From: a virus
Taxonomy: Duplodnaviria; Heunggongvirae; Uroviricota; Caudoviricetes
Strand: one strand, 5' to 3'
Length of the DNA: 64,000 bases
IMG/VR virus record: IMGVR_UViG_3300044715_000866
Shown: positions 5,601 to 62,572 of the stretch, piece after piece
How positions within the stretch are numbered: the first letter of the stretch is position 1
How the letters are laid out: each line of letters starts with the position of its first letter
The notes under the pieces: generated by a model
Databases searched by the model: none
Seen by the model: the letters and a program-made list of their open reading frames with translations, nothing else
Told to the model about the DNA's origin: nothing
Program-made: the position numbers and the translations under genes

Positions 5601-8600
5601 CAACTTTAAGCCATGAATTGTCTGCTAGTGTTGTAGCTCTTGCATTAAATTGGAAAGTTACTGAATATCCGGTTGCGTTAGTTGACGAAGTTGGTAACGG
5701 AGATGTAAGTACTGTAGATGTAGTACCTAAAATTTCAGCTCCCGGATTAACAGATTCTACAGGATCAGTTGGGTATAACACAGTTATTCTATTAACAGAT
5801 ACTCCTTCAGATGCAGTTGTATCTACATACACCGGAGTAGATAATTCAACTGATAAATCAGCAGGTGTTATAGGTTGAAGTTCATCTGGAAGATGTAAAT
5901 TTAAATCCGGAATATTAATATATCCAGAACCACGATAAACAATTTTAATTTCAACAATTTTAGTATCAACAATCTTACATACTGCTTTTGCTTGTTTTGT
6001 ATATCCTCCGCCATCGATTGTAATTGTCGTACCATCAGGATATCCAAGACCGCCATTTACAACAGTTATTGTTTTAACATTTGCCGCAGTTGATGCTCTA
6101 ATTTGAGATCCTGCAGGAACCCAACATGACGGACTAACTGTAATAGTATGATTTGGAATATCAACTTCTTGAATAATTGCACCAACGCCACTAATTGATT
6201 CTACTGCCGAGGTCACAACCATGCCAACCTTAAATCCATTAGTTGAACTAATTGTTAACGTAGTTTGATCTAATACACCAACAACTTGATAAGAACCGTT
6301 ATAGTCACTTAATGCGTTATCGTTAACTGCAATATTAAGATAACCGTCAACTTTTGGTAACACATTATCTTTATTATACGGAACATCAAACGTTACGACT
6401 GTAGCAACTACGCTGCCGTCTTGCAATGCCTTACTATGATACGACATTGCAGGTAATGTATAGTCGTCGGCACTATTATTTGTTATTGGAACACTTGAAA
6501 TTTCAATATATCCGTTACGTGTAGATCCAAATGTAACTGAGTAATTATTAATTGCAGTACCGACTGTATCTCTAACTGTTACAACTGCAATAGCCGGGTC
6601 TTCGCTATTAATTACTACATTATCAACATACCCAGTAAGTGTGATAGTAGTTCCATTTTTTACTACAAAATAATCAGAAATATTAATTGTGCCTACAGTA
6701 CCACTAACTGTTAGTATATTACCAACATAGCTAGTACATGTTCTACTAACTGCAGCAGTTGGTTGTACATATTGCAAAATTTGATGTATTCTACCATTCC
6801 ATGCTGTAATATAGGTTTGTTTGTTAAGTTGATCTATTACTGCAATTTGTGTAATTGGAATTACTGCAAGTTTAGTATCACTTACTTTATACCCTTGGGT
6901 TGCATTTGTAAACGAAACTTCGCCTGATGGTGTTACCGACGGTGCTGCCTCTAATGATGGTTCAACTGTTGTTAACACAATCTCAAATTTACCAGCATCT
7001 ACACCTGTTTTTGCAACTACAGATTGGACTATTTGTCCAGCAAACCCAATACCAACAATTGTTTGACCTACTGCAATGGTAGTACCAGCTGCAACGTTAT
7101 TAACGACAATCGTCGTACTTGATGTACTACCTGATACAACAGTTGCAGTAATAGTGTTAGACGGATCGCCGTTGATGATATTAGTAGGATCGATCATAAT
7201 ATTGTAATATGCAAATGAATTATCACTTTGTAAAATTGCAATATTTGGATCTAATAGCTCACCGGTTGATTCTGCTAAATTATAAGCAACGATACGATAT
7301 ACATCATTTAAGTTATCGTTATATTGCAATGCAGTAGACGGTCTAGTTGGTTTAACGTTATCAATGTTATTAAACTTAACATTTTTTAATACACGAATTG
7401 ATACTACTTGTCCATCATACAACGCTTTTGCTAATCCTGAACTTGCAGTGTTATTATCGCCTGATGTACTTAAATTAAGTTTAATTACAATTATGTTGTT
7501 TACCCGAACAGTAGTATACTCAACTGATGTAATAATATAGTTAGTAATAATACCACCGTTTGCACTATGGTCAATTTCTAATCCCGACCCGGTAGTTGGA
7601 ATATACTCATACGCATGTACCCATACTGCAACTGCAGGAGTAGTAGCAGTAGGCACCATCTCGTTAATAGTTTCACCTTGTTTATAAACTTTTGCAGTTT
7701 GCAACATATGATTTGCTAAGTTTGCACTATCTGGTAATTCAGTAACATCAAACCCTGAAGCACGCATACCATAGTTACCAAATGTGTTTGAACACCCGAC
7801 ACCACGTAAATTACTACCGTTATTTGCCCAGAACCCGGTATGTGCATAATATGTAAATGTACACACTTGTTCAGTAAATGCACCGTTAGATGCTACTATA
7901 CCATAACCTAAATCGTTAAACATTGCAAAGTCATTTGCTAACATTGAACGATTACCACCGGTTTCTAAATTAATTGTTAAATCTGCACCGTTGTTTAAAA
8001 AATCAGTTACTTGTTTAGCAATCCCAGTAGGACCTGTAATATCTAACCCAGTGTATGCAGTTGTATTAACATTACTTGGCAACGTAGGCCATTCTACTGT
8101 AGGTAAGGTTGATGCTACATTTGGATTTGAATTTACATAATCAATTACTATATTAACTAGCGTAGTAAGGGTTAAATCAAATGTACTATCAGCAGCTAAT
8201 GTTTGAATTTGATTTTCTTTATTGCCACGGGTTGGAGTTACTTCAACACCTTTAACAATTGATGTTAAAATATTACGTAATCTTATGTATGCTGTTTGAC
8301 ATACTGATTGCACATCTCCATCTAACAATACTGATTCATATAAATTTGAATTGTTTTTAGAAAATAACGACGTAGCATAATCAACTGTTTGGCTGTTACC
8401 GCCATAGAAAATATCATATGTAATTGCATCAACTAAATAGCCAACATCACGTTCACTCTTTTGTCTATTATAGTTAGGCAACGTGCTTAACACATAATTA
8501 TCTGAAATATACGCAGTTATTTCAGCTTTAATAAACGGTTTATTAATTTGAAGAATATCACGAGCTTTATTTTCATTTAGTGTTTTAGATGCCCAAACAA

Positions 8601-11600
8601 AGTCTAATGTAGCACTTACACCGTTAACTAACATACTTGTTATAAGTGTACTTGATAAAGTTAACCCGGGAATTTCAGCATTTGCTAATTCGATCGATTT
8701 CTCAATTCCTGCTTTAGTTAACCCTTGAAGCTCTCCAATTAACAAACTAGAAGATAGTCTTAAGAATGCTCTACCTGCATGTATTGCACGATAATTAGTA
8801 CCTAATATCGCATCAGTAACTACTGCATCAATTACATACCCTGCATCGCGTCGTGCCTTTACTTCATCGTACACTAAATTGTTTGATATTGGATTATACA
8901 TATACGGCGTTGTAGTATCTAACGTTAACGTTACTGTTTGAGTAGCAGCATTAAATTCAACAATGTCGTCAATTTGATAACGCTTTCCTCTAACATAAAA
9001 CGAACATGGCGGTTGTGGAGGTCTAACATCAAGTCCGCTGCTTTGACCAAACACAATTTTACCAGACGGCGTACTATCTGCAACTGCACTTAATACCACT
9101 GTAGCATTAGTCGATGGCGCAACTGGTAACGTTACACTTACAACATATTGTCTACTTTCAAATCCAGTACCTGTAATTTTAACACCTGGTTTTAATCCAA
9201 CAATGTTAACGATATTATTAACAACCATAGTAGTTGATAATCGTCCGCCACTTACATATGTACCAACTGCACTAGTTGTACCTTGTACTTTAATTGTAAG
9301 ACCTAAGTCAGTAATCTCTTTAATAGTGCCGTATACGCGACCTGCAAATCCGTCAATATATTGTCCACCTGCAAATCGTTTATAGTTGTTACTTTGTGAA
9401 AAACTAGAACATTCTTGAATGTACGGTGATTTAGTTTTAATGTTACCTTCTGGATCTAGAACCATTGCAAAGCCGCCTTGACCTTGGAACGTTACACCAA
9501 TAATACGATTACCTTCATTACATAAGAATACGTCAATTTCTTTATTATTTTTAGCAGGACTTGTTACATCTAATGGATTAGTTAAATAATGACGTCCGTA
9601 GTTAATAGTGTCAAACAAGAACCAGTTGCCGGCTAGTTTAGTAAATGCAGTTTCAAACGGATAAATTACCGTACAGTTCATTGTGTTACCACTAACTGAA
9701 TCAATAACTGCTTTTCCTCTTTTCTTATTGCCACCAGCAGGTATAACATTATCAGTAAACACTTTACCTACCCAACTTAATAATGCTTGGTAATTATTAC
9801 TTAACGTGATAATAATTTTACCACTAACACCGTCAAGCGTAGCAGTAATACCTAAAGAGACTAACGGTGCCGAATTTGAAGCATAATCAATAAGACCTAC
9901 TTCTAACGCATCAATAATTGCATCGCGATAGAAAAATACTCTACGCCACGGGCTTTGACTTTCTCTATCGATTGGACGAATAAGTGTTCTACGCATCTCG
10001 TCACCGCGAACTGAAACGTTTGCTGGAATTTTTAACGGAAAGTCTTCGTAATATATTCCGCTTTCTATAAATACTGAAAGATTTAAATCTCGTACTGTTT
10101 CACCAAATTCCAATTCTTCGCCTACTTTAAAGAAACCGGGTTTAGTTAATCGAACTTGTATTCTGTCTTTACCTGTTGATATTTCAGGTGTGTATTTTAC
10201 AATGCTAGCATACGCCCCTGATGCAGTTAAATTAGTTGACACCCGGCCAACTCCGACAATTATCTTAGCAGGAAAAATATCATTGCTTTTTGGAGCACCT
10301 TGGTCAACATAACCCTTACCGCCGTTGTCAATATCAATATTCCAAATTGCAGTACCGTGCGACGGCGTGGCTGCAAAACTAACACCGTAACGGATTATGT
10401 CTAATACACTATCTAAACTATCAGTAAATATTGCAGTAGCTTCATCTGAAATTTCAGACAGATAGCTGCCAACTACTCCAATGCTACTTGATGGTAGTAT
10501 TGCAGTTGATGAAAACGCAGTAAGCTGAGTTTCAGCTTGTTGGTATCGAACTGCTGTGTAACCTGTTAATACCTCTATACCTAAGTTTTTTGCAAATGCA
10601 ATACCGTCAAAAGATTGAACATAATGTGTGCCAATTGCAACTGATTTCGCGCTTGAGTTTTTGTAAAAACTTTTACCTGCAGTTATTGATTGCCAGTTTC
10701 CACCGGTAATAATATCTATTGCGGCTGCATCAACTATTAGTCCAATATCGCGATAACATAACGATTCATCATAATTAAATCCACCGCCAAACGCAGTATT
10801 AACATAATCAATAGAGGTATTTTCAATTACTTCGGCATTATTATTAATAATAACCTTTAAACTAATTGCATCAATGTATGTTCCACCAGTAAATATAGTG
10901 TCATCAACTGGGATACCCATATATAAGTCATTATCAATTGCAGTAGCTGCAGCTGTAAATTTTGTACCAATAAGGGTTGACGTTGCATTAGTATCATCGT
11001 CGTCGCTATGTCCGTTAACGATAGTTCTAGCGTATAACGAAGTTTTACTAATAACAGTTTTTGTAATAGCCGGCGTGCTAACTATTGTCATTTGATGTGC
11101 AGCTGCAACCGATGCTGCTGTCCCGCCGTACGTAATATCATAACATACTGAAATAATTAGTTTCCTTAAATCAACTGCTAATATAGCTAAAACATCTACG
11201 TCAGTGATACTTTCATCAATATCTAAATATGAGTTAACATCATTAATAATACTAGTAATAGCAGCATTATCTAAACGATTACGTGCGTTACGAATCCAGC
11301 CATTTGGTAGCGGTTGTGTAGTGCCGCCAGTTACATATGAATTTACTTCAACATTAATATCTGGATATCTTGGTAACTCTGTCGGAAGTTCACCTGACTT
11401 AATTATTGTGTCAATTTCAACAAACAACGCGTTAATTCTTTCTAAATAATTAGGATCGTTAATTACTGGGTAGAAGTGATCCATATACCATGATGCTGTA
11501 GTAGTAACATCTGAATTTGTGCCAACAGTGTATATAGATTTATCTAATTCTAATGCTGTAAAAAATGTTATTAAATCAGGTGTCCCAGCAGCAGAATTTG

Positions 11601-15035: not shown

Positions 15036-15066
15036 AAAAAAGGCAGCCTAAGCTGCCTTTTTTATT
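15036..15066. terminator. Bidirectional rho-independent terminator between convergent genes.
   Basis: The sequence is aaaaa aggcagc ctaa gctgcct ttttt. It has a 7-bp GC-rich stem flanked by an A-run and a T-run. Confidence 0.7.
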
Positions 15067-15598
15067 ATCCTGTATATCTACAATGGCTCTTCTTTGTTTC
15101 CCACAGCTCAACTGCAGTAACCTTTGCTACATCACCAATGCGTGATTGTGCATATTCAAACAAATACTTACAGATGTTTTCACTAGTTGGTACAAAATCT
15201 ACTAGTACAAAACTGTTATAATGTAACTGCTCACCTTCAGTTAATCCGACCCAGTTGCAAGTTCCTAAGTTAGTAAAGTTTGCAAATGGGTGTTCTGAAT
15301 TCCTCCATTCGTTACCTGTAATTAACTTAAAGTTTGGATCATTAATATCAATCATAAACTTATGATCTAGCACATCATCTACAAATTGTTTCATAAAGTT
15401 TAAATTCTTAAAGTCTGTAACCATTTCTGAATGATCTAAAGTATCAGAACCTAAAAATACTTTAATTGAATAGCTGTGTCCGTGTAAATGCTTGCAGGCA
15501 CAGTCAGTTGAAATACTTAACTCAACATGATTTAATTTTTGTGCCCATACTCTGTGTCCCATTTCAAAATGAAACTCTTTATCTATTTCCCATTTCAT
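15065..15598 (-). CDS. queD: QueD/PTPS-family 6-carboxy-5,6,7,8-tetrahydropterin synthase (T-fold).
   Basis: EFHFEMGHRVW aligns with the QueD N-terminal FEAAHRL motif. CKHLHGHSY matches the Cys-x3-His-Gly-His zinc/catalytic motif, and VLDHKFMID matches the LDHxxLND block. Its own sigma70-like promoter lies on the minus strand at 15626-15654. Confidence 0.8.
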   Translation of the reverse strand: MKWEIDKEFHFEMGHRVWAQKLNHVELSISTDCACKHLHGHSYSIKVFLGSDTLDHSEMVTDFKNLNFMKQFVDDVLDHKFMIDINDPNFKLITGNEWRNSEHPFANFTNLGTCNWVGLTEGEQLHYNSFVLVDFVPTSENICKYLFEYAQSRIGDVAKVTAVELWETKKSHCRYTG

Positions 15599-22669: not shown

Positions 22670-24310
22670 ATGACTAACACTGATTGGGCAACTAATGTTG
22701 CCCTATCATCTTATACAGATGATGAATTTAATTTAGGTATTTGTGGATCGCATGACGCCTCAATTGCAATATCAAAAGGGAATAAAATCTTAGAAGTAGT
22801 TGAGATTGAAAAATTCACTGGAGAAAAACATGCTAATTTAATATTTAATACTGAAACACAAAAAGATATTAATAGCCACATTATTACCGAAGTATTAACT
22901 TACTTTAGACGCAAGTATCAAGCTAACACATATAACACTGTTTTTTGGAACTTGGTCTGTTACCACAACCAATGGTTAATGGATGACTTACCTACAGAAA
23001 TTAAAAACTTGTTCCCTTCGCGGAATTTTAAAAGATTTAGCCATCACTTATCACACGCATCAAGTGCATTTTATCAATCGCCGTATAATCGAGCATTAAT
23101 TATAACATTTGACGGCGGAAGCGATGAAGGATTATTAAATGTATATATCGGTAATGGAACTGACGATTTAATTCATTTATATAGTAATACTCGTAATTAC
23201 TGTGTTCCTTATGCAGTAATAGGCCATTTCATTTACGAGATTAAAAATGAACCAATCTATCAAATGGGGCAATTTACGTATCCGGGTAAAATGATGGGAT
23301 TAGCCGGGGACGGAGAAGTAGCTGACGATATTGAGCAAAATTTTACAAACTATTTCGAAGAAGTTGCAACTGCTAACTTACAAATACCTGAATTAATAGA
23401 TTGCTTTGCAAAACATATGAATATTTCAAATTCAGTACAGGCGAGTAAAAATACTGCAAAAACATTTGCCGCCACTGCTCAAGTAGTATTTGAAAAATTG
23501 CTACATGAAGAAATTGGTGGGTTCTTAAAGGCATCACACGGGTTGCCGATTGTGTTGTCAGGCGGTGGTGCATTGAACATTATAAACAATTCAAGAATAG
23601 CAAAATCTCATAAAGTATTTGTTCCGCCTAATCCGAATGATTCAGGGATTGCAATAGGATTGTTATGCAATGGTATTCGACCAAAAGAAAAGATAGATTG
23701 TGCATACCTTGGTCCAGACGCATTAGATAGCAGTACGTTAGAAGATGTTGTAGCGTTACGTAACGGCACTACTGTTGATCTAAATAAGCTTGCTGATAAT
23801 ATCATTGCAGGTAAAATTTATGGCGTAGTCCGAGGCCGATCTGAATGTGGGCCAAGAGCATTAGGTAATCGAAGTTTGATATGTAGTGCAATTATTCCTG
23901 AAATGAAAGATATCTTAAATTCTAAAATTAAAAATAGAGAAAGTTTTAGACCGTTTGCACCAGTTGTAAGATTAGAAGATGTTCACACATATTTTAAAAG
24001 TAAAGATGAATTAAGATTTATGTCATTTAATGTTGAAATTCATAAACAGTATGAATCACTATTATATGCAGTATCAAGTTCAGACAATACTGCTAGGGTA
24101 CAAACAATTACTCGAGAACAAAATGAATTCTTATACGATTTATTAACACTATTAGATAAAAAAGTCGGACATGGTATTTTGCTAAACACATCGTTTAATC
24201 TTGATGGAAAACCGATTTTAAACAAATATGCCGATGCATTAGACGTATTAGACACTAAAGATATAGACGGTGTAATCTTTGAAAATTATCTTATTGAAAA
24301 ATCAAAATGA
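22670..24310 (+). CDS. NodU/CmcH-family carbamoyltransferase.
   Basis: The N-terminal Kae1/YgjD-like block is LGICGSHDASIAI. The C-terminal hallmark GRSECGPRALGNRSLI matches GRxEFGPRALGNRS. The 546-aa length fits the family. Confidence 0.85.
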   Translation: MTNTDWATNVALSSYTDDEFNLGICGSHDASIAISKGNKILEVVEIEKFTGEKHANLIFNTETQKDINSHIITEVLTYFRRKYQANTYNTVFWNLVCYHNQWLMDDLPTEIKNLFPSRNFKRFSHHLSHASSAFYQSPYNRALIITFDGGSDEGLLNVYIGNGTDDLIHLYSNTRNYCVPYAVIGHFIYEIKNEPIYQMGQFTYPGKMMGLAGDGEVADDIEQNFTNYFEEVATANLQIPELIDCFAKHMNISNSVQASKNTAKTFAATAQVVFEKLLHEEIGGFLKASHGLPIVLSGGGALNIINNSRIAKSHKVFVPPNPNDSGIAIGLLCNGIRPKEKIDCAYLGPDALDSSTLEDVVALRNGTTVDLNKLADNIIAGKIYGVVRGRSECGPRALGNRSLICSAIIPEMKDILNSKIKNRESFRPFAPVVRLEDVHTYFKSKDELRFMSFNVEIHKQYESLLYAVSSSDNTARVQTITREQNEFLYDLLTLLDKKVGHGILLNTSFNLDGKPILNKYADALDVLDTKDIDGVIFENYLIEKSK

Positions 24311-24738
24311 AACAAAAGTTTAAACATGCTTTTATGAAAACGGCTTATACATTTGCGGAATTAAGTTCCGCAGTTAAGCTCAAAGTTGGTGCTGTTGTAG
24401 TTAAAGACGATAGAATTATTAGTCTTGGCTACAACGGTACACCTACCGGATGGGATAATACATGTGAACTTGAAATTATTAACTTTCAGGATGGATCTGT
24501 TCAACTTAAAACTAAATCAGAAGTTATTCATGCAGAAATGAATGCACTTATGAAATTAGCAAGTTCATCTGAATCTGGTAAAGGTGCAGCTATTTTTATT
24601 ACACATTCGCCTTGCATGGAATGTGCTAAAGGAATATACCAAACTGGTATAACTGAAGTATACTACACTGAAGCATATCGTAATGTAGATGGTATTGAAT
24701 TTTTACAAAAATGTGGTATAACTGTCGAAAAATTATAA
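24307..24738 (+). CDS. cd: dCMP deaminase (CDA-fold zinc deaminase).
   Basis: HAEMNAL...HSPCMECAKGI is the H(A/C)E...PCxxC zinc-binding signature. It is ATGA-coupled to the carbamoyltransferase. Confidence 0.8.
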   Translation: MKQKFKHAFMKTAYTFAELSSAVKLKVGAVVVKDDRIISLGYNGTPTGWDNTCELEIINFQDGSVQLKTKSEVIHAEMNALMKLASSSESGKGAAIFITHSPCMECAKGIYQTGITEVYYTEAYRNVDGIEFLQKCGITVEKL

Positions 24739-33922: not shown

Positions 33923-35623
33923 ATGGCAGGAATAGCACACCCTGAAGATCTTATCATTACTGAAGGATCTAACGGTGCCCTTCAAGCAGTTAATGAATTA
34001 ACTAATCTTTCAACATTAACTATTAAATGGGACGGCTTTCCTGCAATAGTTTTTGGTCGAGATAAAAATGGAACATTAGTGCTTGTTGATAAGCACATGT
34101 TTAAACAAGTTGCTAACGGCAATCTTGAATTTACTTCAATTAGAGAATACGATTTAACCCGTAATATAAATCGTAACGACTTATGGGATAAAGAAGACAT
34201 TCTCCGTCCTGCATTAGACAAAATAATTCCAAATATAACTGACACTTACTACATGGGCGATTTGCTATGGGTTAATACCCCTGTTAGTGTTGGAGATTCA
34301 TATGTTTTTAAACCAAATACTGTCAAATATCATGTTGATCACAATAGTGAGTTAGGTAAATCAATTGCTAATAGTGTTGGGGGTATTGCAGTACATACGT
34401 TTATTCCAGGGTTAACTGCAGAAGACGAACCAATTAATGGTTTTGATGTGTTTGCAGAGTGTAAAGACATTACGTTTATTGCAACTGAGATGAAACAGCC
34501 AAATATTGTTATAAACACTGCATTATTAAACGCTGTACAAACTACAATTGCTACATATTCCAGCGATGTAGACGCTGTTATTGCTAAATTAACTGAGTTA
34601 AAATGTAAAAGTGTAATTACTGCAATGGGACCGTTTATTACTAGTATGATTAACAGTGAAGATCTATCTACTAACATTGTTCCAAGATTTATTGATTTTT
34701 TTACGCTAAGACTTACAAAACCTGCTCACGCTAAACTGTTTTTACCAAATGGAAAACTACGTAACGACATTTACACTGGTATTAATGGTTTATGGAGTAT
34801 ATGGAGTGCAATTTCTAATCTCAAATTAGACATTAAACGTCAAATTGATGAACAACAACTGCACAGTGCAGTGCAACCTGTAATAAATAGTATTATAAGT
34901 CACGAAGGCTATGTATGCGGCAGCGGTATTAACAAAATAAAAATTATAAATCGGTTAGAATTTAGCCGTGCTAACTTTTCCAAATACAATGTAACTGCAG
35001 AGGAAATTGCCGCAAAAAGTAACATGCCAATGGCAACTTTTTGTTTTGGTAGAATGAATCCTCCAACAGTTGGACATAAAAGAGTTATACAACAAACAGT
35101 AGCACTTGGAAAAGAACATGCATATATTTTTGCAAGTAATAAACATGATCCTAAAAGTGACCCATTAGAGTACGACGTTAAAACTGAATTTATTAAAAAA
35201 ATTCATCCTGATTATTCTAACTTTATGGTAACCGAATATGTTAGAGATCCATGGCAAGCTGCATGTTGGTTATATGATAGAGGTTATAGACACATGACAT
35301 TTGTTGCAGGCAGTGATAGACTAGGTAATAGTACTAGAAGTTTAGAAACTGCACTTAACAATTGGAATAGTGGTCCATCTCGCACTTCTGATTATGCTCG
35401 CGGACCAAATGGTAGAGAACATGTAGTATTAAAATTTGTTAGTAGTGGAGATCGCACAGATGAAACTAATAACGCTAGCAGTACATTAGCACGTGAATAC
35501 GCTAAAATAGGTGACAAGATTAATTTCCAACTAATAACTGGTGTAAGTGAAGATATTACAGTATGTGGTAAAACCTTATATGAAGCTACTAGGGAGGGAA
35601 TGAATGTACAACGGAATGAATAA
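33923..35623 (+). CDS. Rnl1-type RNA ligase (nucleotidyltransferase motifs I, IV, V) fused to a C-terminal HIGH-motif (cytidylyltransferase-like, NMNAT-like) nucleotidyltransferase domain.
   Basis: Motif I is LTIKWDGFPAIV (KxDG). EGYVCGSGINKIKII aligns with T4 Rnl1 EGYVAVMKDGSHFKIKS (motifs IV and V). The C-terminal ~200 aa contain FCFGRMNPPTVGHKRV, the HxGH box of the alpha/beta phosphodiesterase-fold nucleotidyltransferases, and later a YRHMTFVAGSDR block. Confidence 0.75.
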   Translation: MAGIAHPEDLIITEGSNGALQAVNELTNLSTLTIKWDGFPAIVFGRDKNGTLVLVDKHMFKQVANGNLEFTSIREYDLTRNINRNDLWDKEDILRPALDKIIPNITDTYYMGDLLWVNTPVSVGDSYVFKPNTVKYHVDHNSELGKSIANSVGGIAVHTFIPGLTAEDEPINGFDVFAECKDITFIATEMKQPNIVINTALLNAVQTTIATYSSDVDAVIAKLTELKCKSVITAMGPFITSMINSEDLSTNIVPRFIDFFTLRLTKPAHAKLFLPNGKLRNDIYTGINGLWSIWSAISNLKLDIKRQIDEQQLHSAVQPVINSIISHEGYVCGSGINKIKIINRLEFSRANFSKYNVTAEEIAAKSNMPMATFCFGRMNPPTVGHKRVIQQTVALGKEHAYIFASNKHDPKSDPLEYDVKTEFIKKIHPDYSNFMVTEYVRDPWQAACWLYDRGYRHMTFVAGSDRLGNSTRSLETALNNWNSGPSRTSDYARGPNGREHVVLKFVSSGDRTDETNNASSTLAREYAKIGDKINFQLITGVSEDITVCGKTLYEATREGMNVQRNE

Positions 35624-36027
35624 TGAAACGATATACAAATGAAGATATACGGGAATTTGAGATTGCCGTAAATGAGATGCAGCATAGCCTAATCCGTGAA
35701 GGTAAACTTCGTCAAGGTGTCCGAGATGCAGTTCCCGGATTAAATGCATGGCCTGCATTAAACAATAATAACAATCCATACAACGCTTATAGATTTGGCA
35801 TTGCAATGGCAGGTGCCCCTGATTTTAAAACTGATAAAAAAGGGCCAAACGGTGGGGACTTTATGACAATGTCATACACTAGTGGCGACGACGAAATATT
35901 AAACTCTGCTGCAAAACAAATGGGTGTAAAAAGTTCATCAATTGCAGCAAAAAAATCTAAAGAAACTGATGATGTTCATAAAGTTAGTCCAGTTGCTAAT
36001 AAAAAACGTAACAGGTACGGTATATGA
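35623..36027 (+). CDS. Hypothetical 134-aa protein, paralogue A of a tandem pair.
   Basis: Shares YxxYRFG(I/V)xMAG(A/S)PD and the C-terminal SSPVAxxKRN(R/K)YG(I/V) with the next gene. TAATG overlap. Confidence 0.6.
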   Translation: MKRYTNEDIREFEIAVNEMQHSLIREGKLRQGVRDAVPGLNAWPALNNNNNPYNAYRFGIAMAGAPDFKTDKKGPNGGDFMTMSYTSGDDEILNSAAKQMGVKSSSIAAKKSKETDDVHKVSPVANKKRNRYGI

Positions 36028-36428
36028 AAATTTTAGAAATCATTACCGAATCAGAAGCTGGTAATACTGATGCTACACAAAACGCCAGCAACACTAAAAA
36101 GTCCGGAAAAATGCATGACAATTTTAAGTCTTCAATAAAAGGAATGCATACATATCCTGGCAATCATACGTATTACGATATGTATAGATTTGGTGTTGAT
36201 ATGGCAGGTAGCCCAGATGATCATAACGAGTACGACCCGTCAAGTCCAGTTGCAAACCAGTTAGTAACACTGTCATATTCTGATGCTGATCAAAAAATTA
36301 TTGATAAAAGTAAAAAGAAAATGGGGTTTAACAGTAAACAGTTAACTTCGGATAATAGTACAGAACCATCTGAAACACATACCTCAAGTCCTGTAGCTAA
36401 AATAAAAAGAAATAAATATGGGGTGTAA
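36024..36428 (+). CDS. Hypothetical 134-aa protein, paralogue B of a tandem pair.
   Basis: Same length and conserved blocks as 35623-36027. ATGA overlap. Confidence 0.6.
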   Translation: MKILEIITESEAGNTDATQNASNTKKSGKMHDNFKSSIKGMHTYPGNHTYYDMYRFGVDMAGSPDDHNEYDPSSPVANQLVTLSYSDADQKIIDKSKKKMGFNSKQLTSDNSTEPSETHTSSPVAKIKRNKYGV

Positions 36429-42433: not shown

Positions 42434-45093
42434 GTTATGTAGATGCTTACTTTGATCGTGATAACGATGTTATTAAAATTGTAGAAAGAAATTCAAAAGG
42501 TGAACGGGAATACAAAGATATTGCCGTTAAACACACATTATATTATACAGACCCGAAAGGGAAATATCAATCAATTTACGGAGACCCCGTATCAAAAGTA
42601 ATTTGTAACAATACAAAAGAGTTCCGCAAAGAACTTTCAATACACGGTAATAAAAAGCTGTTTGAAGCAGATATTAATCCAATTTTTAAATGCTTATCAG
42701 ATAACTATCTTAATCACGACGCGCCTAAATTAAATATTGCGTTTTATGATATTGAGGTTGATTTCGATCCAGAACGCGGGTATGCATCACCCGATGATGC
42801 GTTTATGCCTATTACTGCTATTGCAGTGTATTTACAATGGTTAGATACTCTTATTTGTTTAGCAATACCTCCAAAGACATTAACTATGGATCAAGCTAAA
42901 GAACAAATTAGAGATATTCCAAATACTATTCTTTTTAACACAGAAGCAGAGATGTTAGATACATTTTTAACACTGCTTGAAGATGCTGATATTATTAGCG
43001 GCTGGAATAGTGAAGGATTTGATATACCATACACTGTAAATCGTGTTACAAAAGTTCTATCAAAAGATGATACACGCAGATTTTGCTTGTTTAATCAATT
43101 ACCAAAAAGACGTGAATATGAAAAGTACGGCAAAGCTGCAGTAACATACGACTTTGTAGGACGTGTGCATTTAGATAGTTTACAATTATATCAAAAGTAC
43201 ACATATGAAGAAAGACATAGTTTTAGACTTGATGCTATTGCTGAATATGAGTTAGGTGATCGTAAAACACAGTACGAAGGTACGCTTGATCAGTTATACA
43301 ACAATGACTTTAGAACGTTTATTGAGTACAACCGTCAAGATACTATGCTATTACACAGACTTGATACAAAATTAAAGTTTATTGACCTAGCTAATACACT
43401 TGCACACGAGAACACTGTATTACTACAAACTACTATGGGTGCGGTTGCTGTAACAGAACAAGCAATTATTAACGAATCACATCACAGAGGGTTTGTTGTA
43501 CCTAACAGAAAAGGTAAAGCAGAACCAATTCAAGCTGCAGGCGCGTATGTTGCGTATCCTAAAGAAGGAATTCATGACTGGATTGGCTCGCTAGATATTA
43601 ACTCTCTGTATCCAAGTGCCATTAGAGCATTAAATATGGGTCCGGAGACTATTGTAGGACAACTAAGACCAATCGTAACTGACGAATACATAGGCTTACA
43701 ACTAGCTAAAGGTAAATCGTTTGCTTCTGCATGGGAAGGTTTGTTCGGTACACTTGAATATACGTCTGTTATGAATGAAGAAATAGGTACTGATATTACA
43801 ATTGACTGGGAAAATGGCGATACTGATATATTAAGTGCTGCTGAAGTATACAGATTGATATTTGAAAGTAATCAGCCATGGGTTATGTCAGCTAATGGAA
43901 CTATCTTTTCATATGAAACAGAAGGTATTATTCCTGGATTACTAAAGCGATGGTATGCAGAACGTAAGGATATGCAGAAAAAGCTAAAAGAAGCTATTAA
44001 TGCAGGTAATAAGATTGAAGAAGAATACTGGGATAAACGTCAGCTGGTTAAGAAGATTAACCTAAATAGTTTATATGGTGCTATTCTTAATCCTGGATGT
44101 AGGTTCTTTGATAAACGTATTGGGCAATCAACTACGTTAACTGGTAGACAAATTGCTAAACACATGGCAGCTAAAGTAAATGAGATTATAACCGGCGAAT
44201 ACAATCACACAGGTAAGTCTATTATTTACGGTGACACTGACTCTTGTTACTTTTCAGCGTATCCTACACTTAAACGTGAAATAGATAATGGTAGTTTACC
44301 ATGGTCTAAGGAAACTGTTGTTCAATTATATGATCAAATTAGTGATCAAGTTAATGGTACATTTCAACAGTTCATGCTTGATGCATTTCATTGCCCTAAA
44401 TCGCGTGGTGAAGTAATTAAAGCTGGTCGTGAGATTGTTGGTAGTAAGAGCTTATTCATTACTAAAAAACGTTATGCAGTACTAGTATACGATAAGGAAG
44501 GTAAACGTAAGGATACACTTGGTAAAAACGGTGAAATTAAAGCTATGGGCTTAGACTTAAAGCGTAGTGATACACCTGAATTTATTCAAGACTTCTTATC
44601 ACAAGTATTAGAAATGGTATTAGGTGGTGATACTGAACAGCATGTACTAGATTACATCAGTAAGTTTAGGATATCGTTTAAAGCTAGACCAGGTTGGGAA
44701 AAAGGTTCGCCTAAACGCGCTAATAGCATTACGTCTTATTTAGAAAAAGAAGCTAAACAAGGCAAAGTTAATATGCCCGGACATGTTAGAGCAAGTTTAA
44801 ACTGGAATACACTAAAACGTATGTATGATGACAAGTATTCAATGTCTATTACAGACGGTGCAAAGGTAATTGTATGTAAACTTAAACAAAACCCATTAGG
44901 GTTTACAAGTGTTGCGTACCCAGTAGATGAATTACGCTTACCACAATGGTTTAAAAACCTACCATTTGATCATAATGGAATGGAAGATACTATTATTGAT
45001 AACAAACTTGATAACTTGATTGGCATTTTGAACTGGAAGTTAGCTGATACGTCAGATAGAAACACATTTAACAGTTTATTTGAATTTGAATAA
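42430..45093 (+). CDS. 43: Family-B DNA polymerase (T4 gp43-like) with a 3'-5' exonuclease domain.
   Basis: Exo I is FYDIEVD. Motif A is LDINSLYPSAI, motif B is KINLNSLYGAIL and motif C is YGDTDSCYFS. Length is 887 aa. Confidence 0.95.
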   Translation: MSYVDAYFDRDNDVIKIVERNSKGEREYKDIAVKHTLYYTDPKGKYQSIYGDPVSKVICNNTKEFRKELSIHGNKKLFEADINPIFKCLSDNYLNHDAPKLNIAFYDIEVDFDPERGYASPDDAFMPITAIAVYLQWLDTLICLAIPPKTLTMDQAKEQIRDIPNTILFNTEAEMLDTFLTLLEDADIISGWNSEGFDIPYTVNRVTKVLSKDDTRRFCLFNQLPKRREYEKYGKAAVTYDFVGRVHLDSLQLYQKYTYEERHSFRLDAIAEYELGDRKTQYEGTLDQLYNNDFRTFIEYNRQDTMLLHRLDTKLKFIDLANTLAHENTVLLQTTMGAVAVTEQAIINESHHRGFVVPNRKGKAEPIQAAGAYVAYPKEGIHDWIGSLDINSLYPSAIRALNMGPETIVGQLRPIVTDEYIGLQLAKGKSFASAWEGLFGTLEYTSVMNEEIGTDITIDWENGDTDILSAAEVYRLIFESNQPWVMSANGTIFSYETEGIIPGLLKRWYAERKDMQKKLKEAINAGNKIEEEYWDKRQLVKKINLNSLYGAILNPGCRFFDKRIGQSTTLTGRQIAKHMAAKVNEIITGEYNHTGKSIIYGDTDSCYFSAYPTLKREIDNGSLPWSKETVVQLYDQISDQVNGTFQQFMLDAFHCPKSRGEVIKAGREIVGSKSLFITKKRYAVLVYDKEGKRKDTLGKNGEIKAMGLDLKRSDTPEFIQDFLSQVLEMVLGGDTEQHVLDYISKFRISFKARPGWEKGSPKRANSITSYLEKEAKQGKVNMPGHVRASLNWNTLKRMYDDKYSMSITDGAKVIVCKLKQNPLGFTSVAYPVDELRLPQWFKNLPFDHNGMEDTIIDNKLDNLIGILNWKLADTSDRNTFNSLFEFE

Positions 45094-49561: not shown

Positions 49562-50659
49562 ATGAAATTAAAACCTACTATTTGGATATTTGCTATTGAA
49601 CCATTAGATACTCGATATACTAAACAATGGATCGAGCATATTCCATCACAACTTAAAGAACACGTTGGTGATTACAACATTGTACAAATTACTGGTGATC
49701 AACAAGACTCAGAAGTAACACCGGGTGCATTTTTAAACTTTATAGATACTAACATTTGGAAAGGATCACAGCTTGTTGGTTTTTTAAAAAACTATAATAA
49801 ATCTTCAACTAATGATCATTTCTTATTTACAGATGCATGGAATCCGGCAATTATAAACTTAAAGTACATTAAAGACTTAATGAGATTAAATTGGACATTT
49901 CACGGGTTGTGGCACGCAGGTAGTTATGATAAACACGACTTTCTAGGTGCTATTGATCACGGGTGGGTTAAACTAGCTGAAAAGAGTTATTATGCAGCAT
50001 TTGATCATAATTACTTTGCAACTGAATTCCACGTGCGTATGTTTATGGAACAATTATTAAACAACGGAATGACTAGTGAAAATCCGTGGTTTGAAGAAGA
50101 TTGGGATGAACGTTACGACGATGGTAAAATTGTACGCACTGGTTGGCCAATGGAATACTTAGCAGACGAACTAGCGCCGTATGCTAATAAAGAGAAACGT
50201 GATTTAATTGTATTTCCACATAGAGTTGCTAGCGAAAAACAAGTTGATATTTTTAAAGCATTAGCTCATCAATTACCACAATACGACTTTGTTGTATGTC
50301 AAGAACAAAAGCTAAGTAAAGATGAATATCACAACCTGTTAAGCGAAGCAAAGATCGTGTTTAGTGCTAACTTACAAGAAACATTAGGCATTAGTTGTTA
50401 TGAAGGTGCGTTACTTGGTGCTATTCCAATGGTTCCTGATAGATTAAGTTATAAAGAAATGTATATGTATCATTTTAAATATCCATCAGAATGGACTGCT
50501 AGTTATGCAGACTACGAATCACACAGTTATGATTTGTGTAACAAAATTATCCATTACATAGAAAACTATAATGATATTGTACCATATGTTAAACAACAAG
50601 CCGATTACTTAGCACTGGAATTTTTTAATGCAGGAGATTTATATGACAAGTTTAAATGA
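49562..50659 (+). CDS. Putative GT-B-fold glycosyltransferase (GT4-like C-terminal domain).
   Basis: LIVFPHRVASEKQ...KIVFSANLQETLGISCYEGALLGAIPMV resembles the GT-B C-terminal E-x7-E sugar-donor-binding region (EGFGLxxLEAMAxGxPVV). Confidence 0.5.
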   Translation: MKLKPTIWIFAIEPLDTRYTKQWIEHIPSQLKEHVGDYNIVQITGDQQDSEVTPGAFLNFIDTNIWKGSQLVGFLKNYNKSSTNDHFLFTDAWNPAIINLKYIKDLMRLNWTFHGLWHAGSYDKHDFLGAIDHGWVKLAEKSYYAAFDHNYFATEFHVRMFMEQLLNNGMTSENPWFEEDWDERYDDGKIVRTGWPMEYLADELAPYANKEKRDLIVFPHRVASEKQVDIFKALAHQLPQYDFVVCQEQKLSKDEYHNLLSEAKIVFSANLQETLGISCYEGALLGAIPMVPDRLSYKEMYMYHFKYPSEWTASYADYESHSYDLCNKIIHYIENYNDIVPYVKQQADYLALEFFNAGDLYDKFK

Positions 50660-51062
50660 TACAATAACAACATCATCTGGGTGTGATACAATTACATTTA
50701 ATATGGATGGAGATCCAACACGTTACAGTATACCAGCTTTTGATACTATTACACTTAGTGACTATGTATCTAGTTCAACTGCTAGCGGAATATACAATGG
50801 AACAATGCATGGTACTGCTCCGTACACAATTAGTAATTCTTCTACTATTGGAATTAATGGGGGGTCATCTTATTACACCGGCACTGGTGGTTATTGGAAT
50901 CAATCATATAACGGTAAACCATTTGAAGATAACTTTCCAGAATGGAATGCATTTAGAGAGTTGTGTGATGAATATCCAGGATTAGAAAGAGCATATCAAA
51001 ACTTAAAAACTTTTTATACTATGTGCCATGCAGATAGTTTATTACCAAAGGACGATAAATGA
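50643..51062 (+). CDS. Hypothetical Ser/Thr/Gly-rich protein.
   Basis: RBS aggag before the ATG at 50643. The track's 50628 start is an in-frame extension. Confidence 0.5.
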   Translation: MTSLNDTITTSSGCDTITFNMDGDPTRYSIPAFDTITLSDYVSSSTASGIYNGTMHGTAPYTISNSSTIGINGGSSYYTGTGGYWNQSYNGKPFEDNFPEWNAFRELCDEYPGLERAYQNLKTFYTMCHADSLLPKDDK

Positions 51063-52103: not shown

Positions 52104-52775
52104 ATGAGCTTTAATAAAACAAAAACCGATTCAGAATTAGGTTTAGAAATACACAATCATTTAGTAAGTTTAGGAGTAGAAACTCCGGTAACTGAAAAAA
52201 TATTAACATCATCAGAAAAGATTAATATCATTCAGGACAAGTTTTATGATATTATGGTAACTTTAGGTTTAGACTTAACAGATGACAGTTTAGCAGACAC
52301 TCCTAAACGTGTTGCAAAAATGTTTGTCAACGAAATATTTTGGGGTCTTGATTATGATGCGTTTCCCAAATGTACTACTATTCAAAATAAGATGGGATAC
52401 AATGAAATGTTAATTGAACGCAACATTAACGTACAAAGTAACTGCGAACATCACTTTGTAGTAATTGACGGGTTTGCAACAGTAGGTTACATTCCAAAAG
52501 ATGTTGTACTTGGATTAAGCAAAATTAATCGCGTAGTTGAATACTTTGCAAAACGTCCACAAGTACAAGAAAGATTAACAGAACAAGTATTCCATGCACT
52601 GGAATACATTTTAGATACTGATAATATTGCAGTAGTAATTGATGCAAAACACTATTGTGTTGCTGCAAGAGGTGTAGAAGATACAGGTAGCACTACTATT
52701 ACTAGTAAGTTAGGTGGTGCATTTAAAAACGATCCAACTACTCGTGCAGAATTTATGAGTATTGTAAACAAATAA
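52104..52775 (+). CDS. folE: GTP cyclohydrolase I.
   Basis: CEHHFVVIDG and QVQERLTEQV are FolE signature blocks. Length is 223 aa. The gene has its own consensus promoter. Confidence 0.85.
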   Translation: MSFNKTKTDSELGLEIHNHLVSLGVETPVTEKILTSSEKINIIQDKFYDIMVTLGLDLTDDSLADTPKRVAKMFVNEIFWGLDYDAFPKCTTIQNKMGYNEMLIERNINVQSNCEHHFVVIDGFATVGYIPKDVVLGLSKINRVVEYFAKRPQVQERLTEQVFHALEYILDTDNIAVVIDAKHYCVAARGVEDTGSTTITSKLGGAFKNDPTTRAEFMSIVNK

Positions 52776-52783
52776 GGAGAGTT

Positions 52784-53236
52784 ATGAAAGACTTAAAACC
52801 ACAAATTCCAGCAGTAGGCATTATGAAAACAAGTGACTGGGGTAACAGTAAAATGTATAAAATTCAATGCACATGCGGCAACGACGATGACAATATTGAG
52901 TTTATGATTGAGGCAGATGATCTTAATATGATTACTGTAACTACATTTACAACACAAAAAACTGCGTACTGGGATAGACCATTTGATGTTTCGAACACAT
53001 ACAAAATTAAAAATTCGTTTTTAAGCAGTATTGCATACGAAACATTGAGCTTTCTTAACGGGTTTCAGCATCGTATTAAAATGACATGGAATTTGTGGTT
53101 TAATGGTTATCTTAAATATCAGCAATCAACTATAATGACTGAACAACAGACATTAAACTATGCAGAAACATTGAAGGCTGCAGTTAATGATTGCAAAGAT
53201 TTTCGTAAACAAGATAGGGCAACTAATCTTAAATGA
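52784..53236 (+). CDS. Hypothetical protein (150 aa).
   Basis: RBS aaggag. No clear motif. Confidence 0.5.
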   Translation: MKDLKPQIPAVGIMKTSDWGNSKMYKIQCTCGNDDDNIEFMIEADDLNMITVTTFTTQKTAYWDRPFDVSNTYKIKNSFLSSIAYETLSFLNGFQHRIKMTWNLWFNGYLKYQQSTIMTEQQTLNYAETLKAAVNDCKDFRKQDRATNLK

Positions 53237-53282: not shown

Positions 53283-53933
53283 ATGAACTACTTAATGATT
53301 AAAAAATGTATGAATACCGGACTTAAATATCTGTGTAAAACAAGCGGTAACAAAAATCCTTATTTATATACCGGATCCGGAGTTAGATGGTTGCACCATA
53401 TTAAGAAACACAAATCACATATTATAACTTGTATAATAGGTGAATATAATACTAAAGAAGAATTGCAAGAAGCAGGTCTGCATTATTCTAAATTATATAA
53501 TGTAGTAAAAGATTACACCTGGGCAAATTTAACAGAAGAAAAAGGCGACGGTGGATTAATAGGTAACGGACAATTAGGTAAAACTTGGAAAATTAAAGAT
53601 ACATCTAATATGAATAAACCAAAAACTAAAACAGATGCTTGGTATGAAGGTAAAAAAAAGACTGCTGGTAAAAACAACTATCAATTTAAAGGTCAAATAA
53701 AGACCCCATGGGGTCTTTTTGATACAGGTTTAGATGCTATTACAGAAGGCAAACGATTAAGAGAATTAGGAAATACAGAAGTAATTACAGATGGCAATAC
53801 TTTAAGAAAGTATTTACATTCGTTAGATACTGTGTTAAACTTACAAGGCAGGCGAACTCCAAAAACTTGGAGAGGTAAAACGCCAAGAGAAATAGGTTTT
53901 GAAATAATAAAGGATACAGATGTCAAAAATTAA
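53283..53933 (+). CDS. Seg-like GIY-YIG homing-endonuclease candidate.
   Basis: LKYLCKTSGNKNPYLYTGSGVRWLHHIKKH aligns with I-TevI GIYQIKNTLNNKVYVGSAKDFEKRWKRH (GIY...YIG...R..H). It is followed by a Lys-rich, probably DNA-binding tail. A TATAAATA box lies at 53258-53265. Confidence 0.5.
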   Translation: MNYLMIKKCMNTGLKYLCKTSGNKNPYLYTGSGVRWLHHIKKHKSHIITCIIGEYNTKEELQEAGLHYSKLYNVVKDYTWANLTEEKGDGGLIGNGQLGKTWKIKDTSNMNKPKTKTDAWYEGKKKTAGKNNYQFKGQIKTPWGLFDTGLDAITEGKRLRELGNTEVITDGNTLRKYLHSLDTVLNLQGRRTPKTWRGKTPREIGFEIIKDTDVKN

Positions 53934-54762
53934 GATATCAGAAATATTTTACTCTCTACAAGGAGAGGGTAGATTTATGGGAGTGCCAAGTGTGTTCCTT
54001 AGAACGTTTGGGTGCAATTTTTCTTGTAGAGGGTTTGGAATGCCAGCAGGTGAACTAAGTGTACAAGCAGATGCGATTGCTAATAATGGTATACAATATC
54101 ATTCATATGATGAACTACCATTAGTAACTACTGGCTGTGACAGTTATGCAAGTTGGCATCCAAAGTTTAAACATCTAAGTCCAGCGATGTCAATAGACGA
54201 AGTTGCAGCTAAAATGATTGAGCTGTTACCTAACGGTGAATGGGGTGGAGTACACTTAGTAATTACAGGCGGCGAACCATTATTACCAGGTTGGCAACAA
54301 ATATATCCAGAATTACTAAGACATCCATTATTAGCAGACTTAAAAAACATTACATTCGAAACTAATGGTACACAAGAACTGTTACAAGATTTTGAAAACT
54401 ACTTATACATGGAAAGACGGTATCAAACTACGTTTTCAGTTAGTCCTAAACTAAGTGTAAGTGGCGAGCCTAGAGAAAAGGCAATACGTCCTGAAATAGT
54501 AACCGAGTATCAGTTTTCAGGGCATAGTTCATTTTTAAAATTTGTAGTAGCATCTGAAGAAGACGTAGAAGAAGCGCGTGAAGTAATGCAGCTATATAAA
54601 GACAACGGATTTAGAGGTGATATTTACTTAATGCCAGTAGGCGGTGTAACTGATGTATACAACCTTAATAATCGACGAGTAGCAGAACTTGCATTAACGC
54701 ACGGATTGAGATACAGTGATAGACTTCACCTCCCTCTCTTCGGTAACAACTGGGGAACATAA
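53920..54762 (+). CDS. queE: 7-carboxy-7-deazaguanine synthase (radical-SAM QueE) with a long insertion inside the cluster-binding Cys motif.
   Basis: ISEIFYSLQGEGRFMGVPSVFLRTFGCNFSC aligns with QueE EIFxTIQGEGxxxGxPxxFVRxxGC. The third Cys (TGCDSY) lies about 38 residues downstream. Confidence 0.8.
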   Translation: MSKIKISEIFYSLQGEGRFMGVPSVFLRTFGCNFSCRGFGMPAGELSVQADAIANNGIQYHSYDELPLVTTGCDSYASWHPKFKHLSPAMSIDEVAAKMIELLPNGEWGGVHLVITGGEPLLPGWQQIYPELLRHPLLADLKNITFETNGTQELLQDFENYLYMERRYQTTFSVSPKLSVSGEPREKAIRPEIVTEYQFSGHSSFLKFVVASEEDVEEAREVMQLYKDNGFRGDIYLMPVGGVTDVYNLNNRRVAELALTHGLRYSDRLHLPLFGNNWGT

Positions 54763-60818: not shown

Positions 60819-61483
60819 TGGCAGAACTTAAACATGTTGGAAGAGTTAAAGCTTCTGGCAAAAAATGTATAGTAGCATATCGCACCCTACCAGGCGATGC
60901 GTACAATTGCTTAATTGTACCTACTGAAAATTTGCCAGACAGCTATCACGATGCACTTATTAACTTAGTTGAAAGTTCAAGTGGTCAGGCTTCGTATGAA
61001 TTTGCAGAAGCAATGGCACGCACTAACTTTCCAGATGGCAGTATCATGCTTGCTGCGTTGCACACTCAAGATAGATTAGTTAAAGTTTCAACTGATCAAA
61101 TTGAAATGTTACCAACTAATTCGTACACAATTTTGTTGTCTGAACTAAATCAAGTTATTGCAGAACAACGTGGCACTACAGTTGATGAGCTATCTCTTAA
61201 ATCTACAGTTAAAATAGAACAACCTACTAAACCTGTAGTTAAAGAAACTCCGGCTGAGGCAAAAGCGGCACTTGTTGAACTATTGACTCCCGAGCAAAAA
61301 GCTAAACACTATCGTTCAGAAGCAGATCGTCTTTCAAAAGAAGCTGCATCTTTACGTAGACAGGCTGAAGAATTAGTACCAACTGCTAAAAAAGTTAAAA
61401 CTGAAACTGTAGCAGAAGAAGTAGTAACTACCACTACAGCAAAAAAGGAAAAAGTTGTTAAAACAGACGAAACCGCTTCCTAA
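60818..61483 (+). CDS. Hypothetical 221-aa protein with a C-terminal coiled coil.
   Basis: TAATG-coupled ORF. Confidence 0.55.
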   Translation: MAELKHVGRVKASGKKCIVAYRTLPGDAYNCLIVPTENLPDSYHDALINLVESSSGQASYEFAEAMARTNFPDGSIMLAALHTQDRLVKVSTDQIEMLPTNSYTILLSELNQVIAEQRGTTVDELSLKSTVKIEQPTKPVVKETPAEAKAALVELLTPEQKAKHYRSEADRLSKEAASLRRQAEELVPTAKKVKTETVAEEVVTTTTAKKEKVVKTDETAS

Positions 61484-61775
61484 AGAAGTAGTTGCACACT
61501 GGCCAGAAGTATTTGAAGAGGTAACACTTAATGTGTTACCTCTTCTTTATTTGCATTCAGTAGTTATTAATTTTAAAGATAATAAGTCTTGGGAAATAAA
61601 ATTAACAACTAAAATAAAAAAAGATGGATGGAATAGCTTTCAACAGAGTTTATCAGAATTGTTAAATTCGTATGAAGAACAGATAGACGATGTAGATTTT
61701 AAACTGGATGCAGCAAAAGTAAAAAAAGATGTAGAAAAACTAACCAATAAATTTTTAAAGAAACAAAAATTATGA
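61455..61775 (+). CDS. Hypothetical ~106-aa protein; the TTG start is doubtful.
   Basis: ORF overlapping the upstream gene by 29 nt with no ATG near the 5' end. Confidence 0.35.
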   Translation: MLKQTKPLPKEVVAHWPEVFEEVTLNVLPLLYLHSVVINFKDNKSWEIKLTTKIKKDGWNSFQQSLSELLNSYEEQIDDVDFKLDAAKVKKDVEKLTNKFLKKQKL

Positions 61776-62539
61776 ACATTAAATTAGTATCATATTCTCA
61801 ACCAACTGAAGAATTTGCTGAATTAGGAATTACTGATGCACAAGAACTTATTGCGTTTTGCGCTCGGGTAAGTAATCCGTCAAATCAGTTTAATACAGAA
61901 ACTTCAGAAAAACTTATCAACTACTTAATTAAACATAAACATTGGTCACCGCTTGAAATGGTTAATGTGTGTTTAGAAATTAATACCACCCGCGATATTG
62001 CACGTCAATTACTACGTCACGCTTCATTTAGATTCCAAGAGTTTAGTCAACGCTATGCAGATCCAACAAACGATCTGTCTTTTGAAATACGCGATGCTAG
62101 ATTTCAAGATCCTAAAAATCGTCAAAATTCAATTACAATTAATACTGCAGAAGAAGAGGCAATTAATGATGAATGGCATCTAAGACAAGAAGCTCATATT
62201 AATTCAGCAAAAGCACAATATGAATGGGCAATTAGCAAAGGTATTGCTAAAGAACAAGCTCGTGTCGTTCTTCCAGAAGGCAATACTAAAAGTCGTGTGT
62301 ATGTTAACGGGACGTTGCGCTCATGGATTCACTACATACAAGTGCGCAGTAACGTGGATACACAGCTTGAACACAAACAAGTTGCTGTAGCATGTGCGCA
62401 AGCAATTAGCGCAGTATTTCCAATGGTAAATGACTTTGTTTATAAGGAAGAACCAGTTTTAGAACCTATTAAAGAAGAAATTGTTGAACCTAAAAAACTT
62501 AAATGGCATCAACACTTTTTTAATTTTTACAAACACTAA
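61772..62539 (+). CDS. thyX: ThyX-family flavin-dependent thymidylate-synthase homologue with a degenerate RHR motif.
   Basis: HKHWSPLEM aligns with the ThyX HxSxxEH block. LRHASFRFQEFSQRY fits the RHRx7SxR signature spacing, but the third Arg is Ala. Length is 255 aa. Confidence 0.6.
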   Translation: MNIKLVSYSQPTEEFAELGITDAQELIAFCARVSNPSNQFNTETSEKLINYLIKHKHWSPLEMVNVCLEINTTRDIARQLLRHASFRFQEFSQRYADPTNDLSFEIRDARFQDPKNRQNSITINTAEEEAINDEWHLRQEAHINSAKAQYEWAISKGIAKEQARVVLPEGNTKSRVYVNGTLRSWIHYIQVRSNVDTQLEHKQVAVACAQAISAVFPMVNDFVYKEEPVLEPIKEEIVEPKKLKWHQHFFNFYKH

Positions 62540-62544
62540 TCACA

Positions 62545-62572
62545 ACAAAGCCGGCAATTGCCGGCTTTATCA
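62545..62572. terminator. Bidirectional terminator (perfect palindrome) between convergent thyX-like(+) and the Gly-rich gene(-).
   Basis: The sequence is aaagccggcaattgccggcttt, flanked by A-rich and T-rich sequence. Confidence 0.65.

Follow-up and report, generated by a model that had tools for sequence, protein, structure and literature searches.

The open reading frame at 61772–62539 (plus strand) encodes a protein of 255 amino acids which is assigned by its sequence to the flavin-dependent thymidylate synthases (ThyX). In its RHR motif, the third arginine is replaced by alanine (A84), and an arginine (R87) stands three residues further on. With a probability of about 0.8, the enzyme is active and makes dTMP in the ordinary way, with the signature arginine relocated but the specificity not switched. 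The window, i.e., the whole stretch of DNA analyzed here, comprises 64 kb of an uncultured phage genome of about 194 kb.

Family assignment and signature motif

The ThyX core (residues 1 to about 220) is followed by a C-terminal extension, and the ATG start codon of thyX overlaps the stop codon of the upstream gene as ATGA. The G + C content of the gene equals that of the window (35.3%). In the profile alignment proposed as a check by the sequence-only reading of this DNA, the product matched the Pfam family PF02511 (Thy1) over residues 21–217 with an E-value of 2.5e-40 and 138.8 bits, above the threshold of 24.8 bits. PF02511 was the sole family found in the Pfam search, and the ThyA fold (PF00303) gave no match there at E ≤ 1. 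The product also matched the thyX equivalog TIGR02170 (154.8 bits, cutoff 87.9) and PHROG 85 (thymidylate synthase, 3e-68). The closest solved relative is the ThyX of the chlorovirus PBCV-1 (Paramecium bursaria Chlorella virus 1; A674R; 2CFA, 4FZB), which was aligned over residues 1–219 with an E-value of 2e-51, end to end and with short indels only. For the AF2 monomer model (pLDDT 79.6), all of the top 50 Foldseek matches were ThyX structures with a probability of 1.0, and the comparison with PBCV-1 ThyX resulted in a probability of 1.0 and a TM of 0.70–0.77, normalised to the target. ThyX enzymes form homotetramers, and three subunits contribute to each active site. The initial description of the gene as ThyX-like is borne out by the matches to PF02511, TIGR02170, PHROG 85 and PBCV-1 as well as by the predicted fold.

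Direct reading of the signature region gave L80-L81-R82-H83-A84-S85-F86-R87-F88-Q89-E90-F91-S92-Q93-R94-Y95, of which R82 to Y95 are encoded at 62015–62056 (plus strand). In the alignment to PBCV-1 (RHRSFHFQEFSQRY), the matching columns hold L77, R78, H79, R80, S81, F82, H83, F84, Q85, E86, F87, S88, Q89, R90 and Y91. The codon GCT at 62021–62023 (plus strand) places A84 where RHR enzymes have their third Arg (R80 in T. maritima and PBCV-1), and the codon AGA at 62030–62032 (plus strand) encodes R87, where RHR enzymes have Ser, Thr or Ala. R87 is regarded as the relocated arginine on the basis of the coupling statistics and an exact R/S exchange (see below). The protein departs from the strict RHR-x7-S pattern by R82-H83-A84-x7-S92, with the spacing and three of the four signature residues retained and Arg at +3, so that the motif reads RHASFR instead of the canonical RHRSFS. 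The RHA motif with correct x7-S-x-R spacing, as described in the sequence-only reading, was confirmed column for column against PBCV-1 ThyX; the Arg at position +3 after A84 was absent from that description. An assembly or sequencing error as the source of RHA was rejected, because exactly this protein is encoded on 15 or more contigs that stem from independent samples, and A84 and R87 are retained throughout the clade of relatives at ≥83% identity.

The remaining active site is conserved. The residues H57 (the histidine of the HxHWS block), Q79, R82, H83, E90, S92, R94, Y95, E161, R164, R183 and R192 correspond in the PBCV-1 alignment to H53, Q75, R78, H79, E86, S88, R90, Y91, E152, R155, R173 and R182, respectively. 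The numbers from H53 to Y91 are those of T. maritima as well. Among these, R183 (R165 in T. maritima and H. pylori) is the FAD-phosphate binder from the neighboring subunit and invariant together with H83, and R192 is the uracil binder. The dUMP phosphate, ribose and uracil contacts named in the literature (R74, R78, Q79, S92, R94, R164 and R192) are all conserved, and most functional residues besides the third Arg are invariant across the homolog alignment (A1). In the clade of the window enzyme (17 sequences in the tree), the dN/dS ratio of the core, calculated for 12 coding sequences, ranges from 0.04 to 0.20, i.e., thyX is under purifying selection.

PBCV-1 ThyX shares with the window enzyme the fold, the substrate-recognition segment FQEFSQRY and the listed active-site residues, whereas its motif is RHRSFH and the C-terminal tail of 36 residues is missing. 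The bacterial enzymes T. maritima TM0449, M. tuberculosis Rv2754c and H. pylori ThyX likewise belong to PF02511/TIGR02170 and have the same extended-motif residues, but are about 22–24% identical to the window enzyme, and their +3 residue behind RHR is small (RHRHFS in M. tuberculosis).

Coupling of positions 84 and 87 across phage lineages

Among the 120 best database homologs, 112 have RHR with Ser or Ala at +3, six RHA with Arg, one RHV with Arg and one RHK with Gly. For a larger sample, IMG/VR was scanned using back-translated patterns, and the statistics refer to the FQEFSQRY subfamily. With a motif-neutral pattern, none of 118 randomly returned RHR sequences contained Arg at +3 (one had Lys and one His); two RHSSIK sequences were obtained by the same pattern. 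The complete scan for RHA resulted in 43 contigs, with +3 occupied by Arg in 37, Lys in one, Asp in four and Ser in one. Compensation is not universal, since five of these 43 sequences (four RHASFD and one RHASFS) lack a basic residue at +3. Arg at +3 together with either Arg or an AGY-encoded Ser at the third position was found on ten contigs in the complete scans (six RHRSFR and four RHSSFR).

The coupling was tested on 143 sequences thinned at 85% identity, 14 of which are without the third Arg. Arg or Lys is present at +3 in 11 of these 14 lineages vs. none of the 129 RHR lineages (Fisher, 4e-14), and columns 84 and 87 show by far the strongest association anywhere in the protein. A weak third partner is residue 77 on the preceding helix (62000–62002), where Gly replaces Ala in 6 of 11 swapped lineages vs. 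2 of 131 others. Gly77 (TTRDIGRQIL) is also present in double-Arg RHRSFR forms (L272, L275 and L277), and the window enzyme has Ala77. Gly at residue 77 may be a permissive change.

Some of the uncompensated sequences (L161, L163 and L164, IMG/VR) form a small divergent ThyX group with RHASFD, in which neither site carries a basic residue, +3 is acidic and the HKHWS block begins with Asn instead of His. In contrast to the window enzyme, this group could be truly altered or inactive.

The number of origins was estimated from trees calculated after removal of the motif columns 84 and 87 and thinning to 85% identity (neighbour-joining, 100 bootstraps). Fitch parsimony resulted in 10–14 state changes in 100 of 100 bootstrap trees (143 sequences). 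By sequence identity, the nearest neighbor of most variant groups is an RHR sequence and not a member of another variant group (e.g., 72.8% vs. 55.4% and 80.8% vs. 71.4%); for the clade of the window enzyme, the corresponding values are 77.0% and 71.4%. Later IMG/VR scans added further separate variant lineages. On these tree and distance data, the compensated pair substitution is taken to have arisen at least ten times independently in phage ThyX, and such recurrence of a coupled change in at least ten independent lineages marks the swap as compensated and function-preserving.

The exchange is clearest in one close pair: L270 (RHSSFR) and L073 (RHRSFS) are 88% identical proteins with an exact Arg/Ser exchange between both positions, and the +3 Ser codon is AGY in many RHR enzymes, one step from the AGR codons of Arg. 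Double-Arg RHRSFR is rare (six contigs in IMG/VR), and these forms are plausible transient intermediates of the swap. The family thus offers a clean natural case of an active-site arginine hopping repeatedly between two nearby positions, with rare double-Arg intermediates.

The same type of swap, with the third Arg lost and Arg at +3, is present in the Synechococcus phage S-CRM01 (SCRM01_080c, td; IIRHSSFRFQEFSQRY). In contrast to the window enzyme, its motif is RHSSFR with Ser and not Ala at the vacated site, the sequence background is different and the origin independent, and the C-terminal tail is missing. S-CRM01 is an isolated freshwater cyanophage with RHSSFR in its single td-locus gene, and therefore a propagating phage lives with the swapped motif. 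RHASFR could not be found in deposited phage genomes by peptide tblastn, the top matches being 89.5–90.3% identical, and the ThyX proteins of the phages DC31, P26059A, ACF1 and Aristophanes are all RHR. Scanning the genomes of 185,579 cellular species for RHA forms yielded a single match on a 5.6 kb MAG contig, and the swapped form is therefore essentially viral. No paper describing an RH[A/S/V]xx[R/K] form of the motif was found in a literature search. For annotation, RH[A/S/V]-x-x-[R/K]-x4-S constitutes a second recurrent natural signature. It should be accepted by filters based on the textbook RHRX7S signature (Myllykallio 2002, as quoted in PMC2826268), which evolutionary and annotation studies such as PMC2826268 apply.

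Role of the third arginine and competing readings

According to the sequence-only reading, the third Arg contacts the dUMP phosphate. The three secondary accounts consulted on this point partly disagree. One lists Arg-80 among the residues hydrogen-bonding dUMP and backs the premise (PMC3498832). Against it, a structural review has the RHR motif mainly hydrogen-bonded to FAD, namely at its AMP phosphate, ribityl and FMN phosphate, and names as dUMP contacts the first Arg of RHR and residues outside RHR, with the third Arg unlisted (PMC6514825). The third account reports that in PolB, a ThyX-like UMP methylase, the third Arg is not used for substrate binding (PMC5003785). Whether the ligand is dUMP or FAD, the positive charge of the third Arg is directed at one of its phosphates, and an Arg located three residues further along this loop could plausibly take over.

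In the preferred reading of a relocated arginine, the guanidinium lost at A84 would be provided from +3 by R87, reaching into the vacated site, so that a single positive charge would be delivered to one phosphate-binding pocket from either position 84 or position 87. The FAD pyrophosphate/ribityl is the most likely occupant of this pocket, the dUMP phosphate a less likely one. In the AF2 model, residues 82–90 are located in a coil with a pLDDT of about 66–74. The predicted reaction is the flavin-dependent conversion of dUMP, CH2-THF and NADPH to dTMP, and most likely the swap leaves this job unchanged. Together with the dCMP deaminase of the phage (24307–24738, plus strand; PF00383; PHROG 174, 9.6e-51), the presumed upstream partner and the type of enzyme that usually provides dUMP to thymidylate synthases, the enzyme would feed dTMP to the replication of a genome with 65% A + T.

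It was suggested in the sequence-only reading that the altered motif is relevant to the other base-modification genes of the phage. These are the 7-deazaguanine genes for GTP cyclohydrolase I (FolE, 52104–52775), a QueE-like radical SAM enzyme (53920–54762) and a QueD-like PTPS (15065–15598, minus strand), the latter distant from FolE and QueE, and they act on G and not on T. In many IMG/VR relatives, the gene order upstream of thyX matches that of the window (FolE, QueE, MoxR-like and VWA genes), and the ThyX proteins of such syntenic relatives are canonical RHR-Ser with 63–68% identity (e.g., L168, L181, L180 and L202). Since syntenic relatives with FolE and QueE carry an RHR ThyX, the motif form is not tied to the modification genes, and any connection of the variant with 7-deazaguanine synthesis was rejected.

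Against the proposal that loss of the third Arg opened a new substrate (dCMP, UMP) or product (e.g., 5-hydroxymethyl-dUMP) for pyrimidine DNA modification stand these orthologs, which are RHR next to the same modification genes. The proposal draws on the broken RHRX7S signature, on the investment of the phage in DNA modification by 7-deazaguanine genes, on a carbamoyltransferase in operon with the dCMP deaminase, and on the exocyclic methylene of ThyX chemistry, which a nucleophile could in principle trap (PMC8989533); known phage dUMP hydroxymethylases, however, belong to the ThyA family (PMC8989533), and no 5-hmdU kinase or similar gene is present in the window annotations. Specificity can shift within the ThyX family, as exemplified by PolB, the ThyX-fold UMP C5-methylase of polyoxin biosynthesis, but in this one known variant the shift maps to Loop 1, Loop 2 and Tyr99/Tyr126 with the Arg contacts retained, and not to RHR (PMC5003785). 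In PolB, insertions in both loops with Tyr124/Tyr126 gate UMP; nothing like this was noticed in the window enzyme, whose alignment to PBCV-1 ThyX contains short indels only. Furthermore, the charge is restored at +3, the swap recurs across many unrelated phage backgrounds, the third Arg has no substrate contact in two of the three structural accounts, and the uracil, ribose and phosphate contacts are all conserved. This makes a change of substrate or product improbable, and the claim of an altered specificity remained unsupported given the Arg at +3, the recurrent swap, the disputed premise, the conserved dUMP contacts and the G-type modification genes. Just as poorly favored is a more general form in which RH[A/S/V]xx[R/K] is non-neutral, i.e., a reshaped flavin or nucleotide phosphate pocket would lead to another product or substrate (e.g., a C5-modified dUMP and not dTMP) or another flavin usage, with phages switching forms under selection.

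A changed handling of the cofactor in the same reaction is unlikely as well, although the RHR motif is described as hydrogen-bonding FAD at its AMP phosphate, ribityl and FMN phosphate (PMC6514825) and the swap shows a mild association with the A-to-G change at residue 77 (6/11 vs. 2/131). The FAD pyrophosphate/AMP would be held differently, so that, e.g., the flavin would be weaker or exchangeable, or FMN or another reductant would be preferred. Against this, R183, the FAD-phosphate partner from the neighboring subunit, and H83 are invariant, and close relatives frequently go back and forth between the forms, which suggests that these are near-neutral alternatives. A decaying or inactive ThyX remnant, to which the one missing signature residue could point, is extremely improbable: the ORF is full-length, the remaining catalytic residues are invariant, many contigs carry exactly the same protein, and the selection analysis (dN/dS 0.04–0.20) effectively refutes it. 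Overall, the finding amounts to a small variant of a known enzyme and gives no hint of novel chemistry in the DNA of the phage.

Gene neighborhood and C-terminal tail

Downstream, thyX converges with a long minus-strand ORF. Between both genes, a palindromic G + C hairpin (AAAGCCGGCAATTGCCGGCTTT) is located at 62547–62568 with a stem of 9 bp, a dG of −15.9 kcal/mol and a z of −5.05. Being readable on both strands, it is classified from its sequence as a bidirectional intrinsic-terminator-like site, in agreement with the convergent terminator noted after thyX in the sequence-only reading. The convergent ORF is the start of a giant ORF (2619 aa in L001) with a faint Calx-beta match and a Gly run. 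Another ORF of 3835 aa at 2641–14148 (minus strand) has no recorded Pfam match, and the products of the two giant ORFs are probably virion or tail proteins. At 61515–61545, inside the coding ORF 61455–61775 upstream of thyX, an inverted repeat with perfect arms of 13 bp (GAAGAGGTAACAC...GTGTTACCTCTTC) and then TTTATTTG was observed; its score is terminator-like. A second thymidylate synthase may be encoded elsewhere in the genome of about 194 kb, beyond the 64-kb window.

The 7-deazaguanine genes are scattered over the window. No PHROG match was obtained for either ORF lying between the FolE and QueE genes (52784–53236, 150 aa; 53283–53933, 216 aa) or for the ORFs at 49562–50659 and 50628–51062, and neither QueC nor DpdA/TGT was recognized among the ten ORFs screened. 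In the region 22670–24738, a Nol/NodU-like carbamoyltransferase of 546 aa (PHROG 1601, 1.6e-98) overlaps the start of the dCMP deaminase gene by ATGA, which suggests co-translation. The adjacent ORFs 35623–36027 and 36024–36428 encode 134 aa each with near-identical C-termini (...SPVANKKRNRYGI and ...SPVAKIKRNKYGV) and look like a tandem duplication.

According to alignment A1, the C-terminal extension of ThyX comprises residues 220–255 (36 residues; 62429–62536, plus strand). Its linker is variable, acidic and Pro-rich, and its conserved end (KKLKWHQHFFNFYKH, nt 62492–62536) is cationic and amphipathic; PBCV-1 and most ThyX do not have this extension. The tails of relatives end with KKSFLKSLFNFGRK, KKYWLKRLFWFIK or KKSFLKRFFSLFCK, and in this phage group the tail is present irrespective of the motif (RHR or RHA). 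Of 17 long tails, 15 have a net charge of +1 to +5 and a hydrophobic moment of 0.5–0.7; in the AF2 model of the window enzyme, the pLDDT of the tail is below 50. Membrane-targeting helices of the MinD type are short, cationic and amphipathic and sit at the extreme C-terminus behind a flexible linker. The tail resembles such a helix and may act in this way or as a protein-docking peptide.

The family-B DNA polymerase of the phage (ORF 42430–45093) is nearest to Atu_ph07/Rak2-like jumbo members of the T4 superfamily (42–49% identity). Its C-terminus (45061–45090) reads ...RNTFNSLFEFE and resembles the sliding-clamp-binding C-terminal peptides of T4 and RB69 gp43. In some relatives, the hydrophobic pattern of the ThyX tail (SLFNFG) is loosely like ...NSLFEFE of the polymerase, which raises the idea that ThyX might be tethered to the sliding clamp by its tail.
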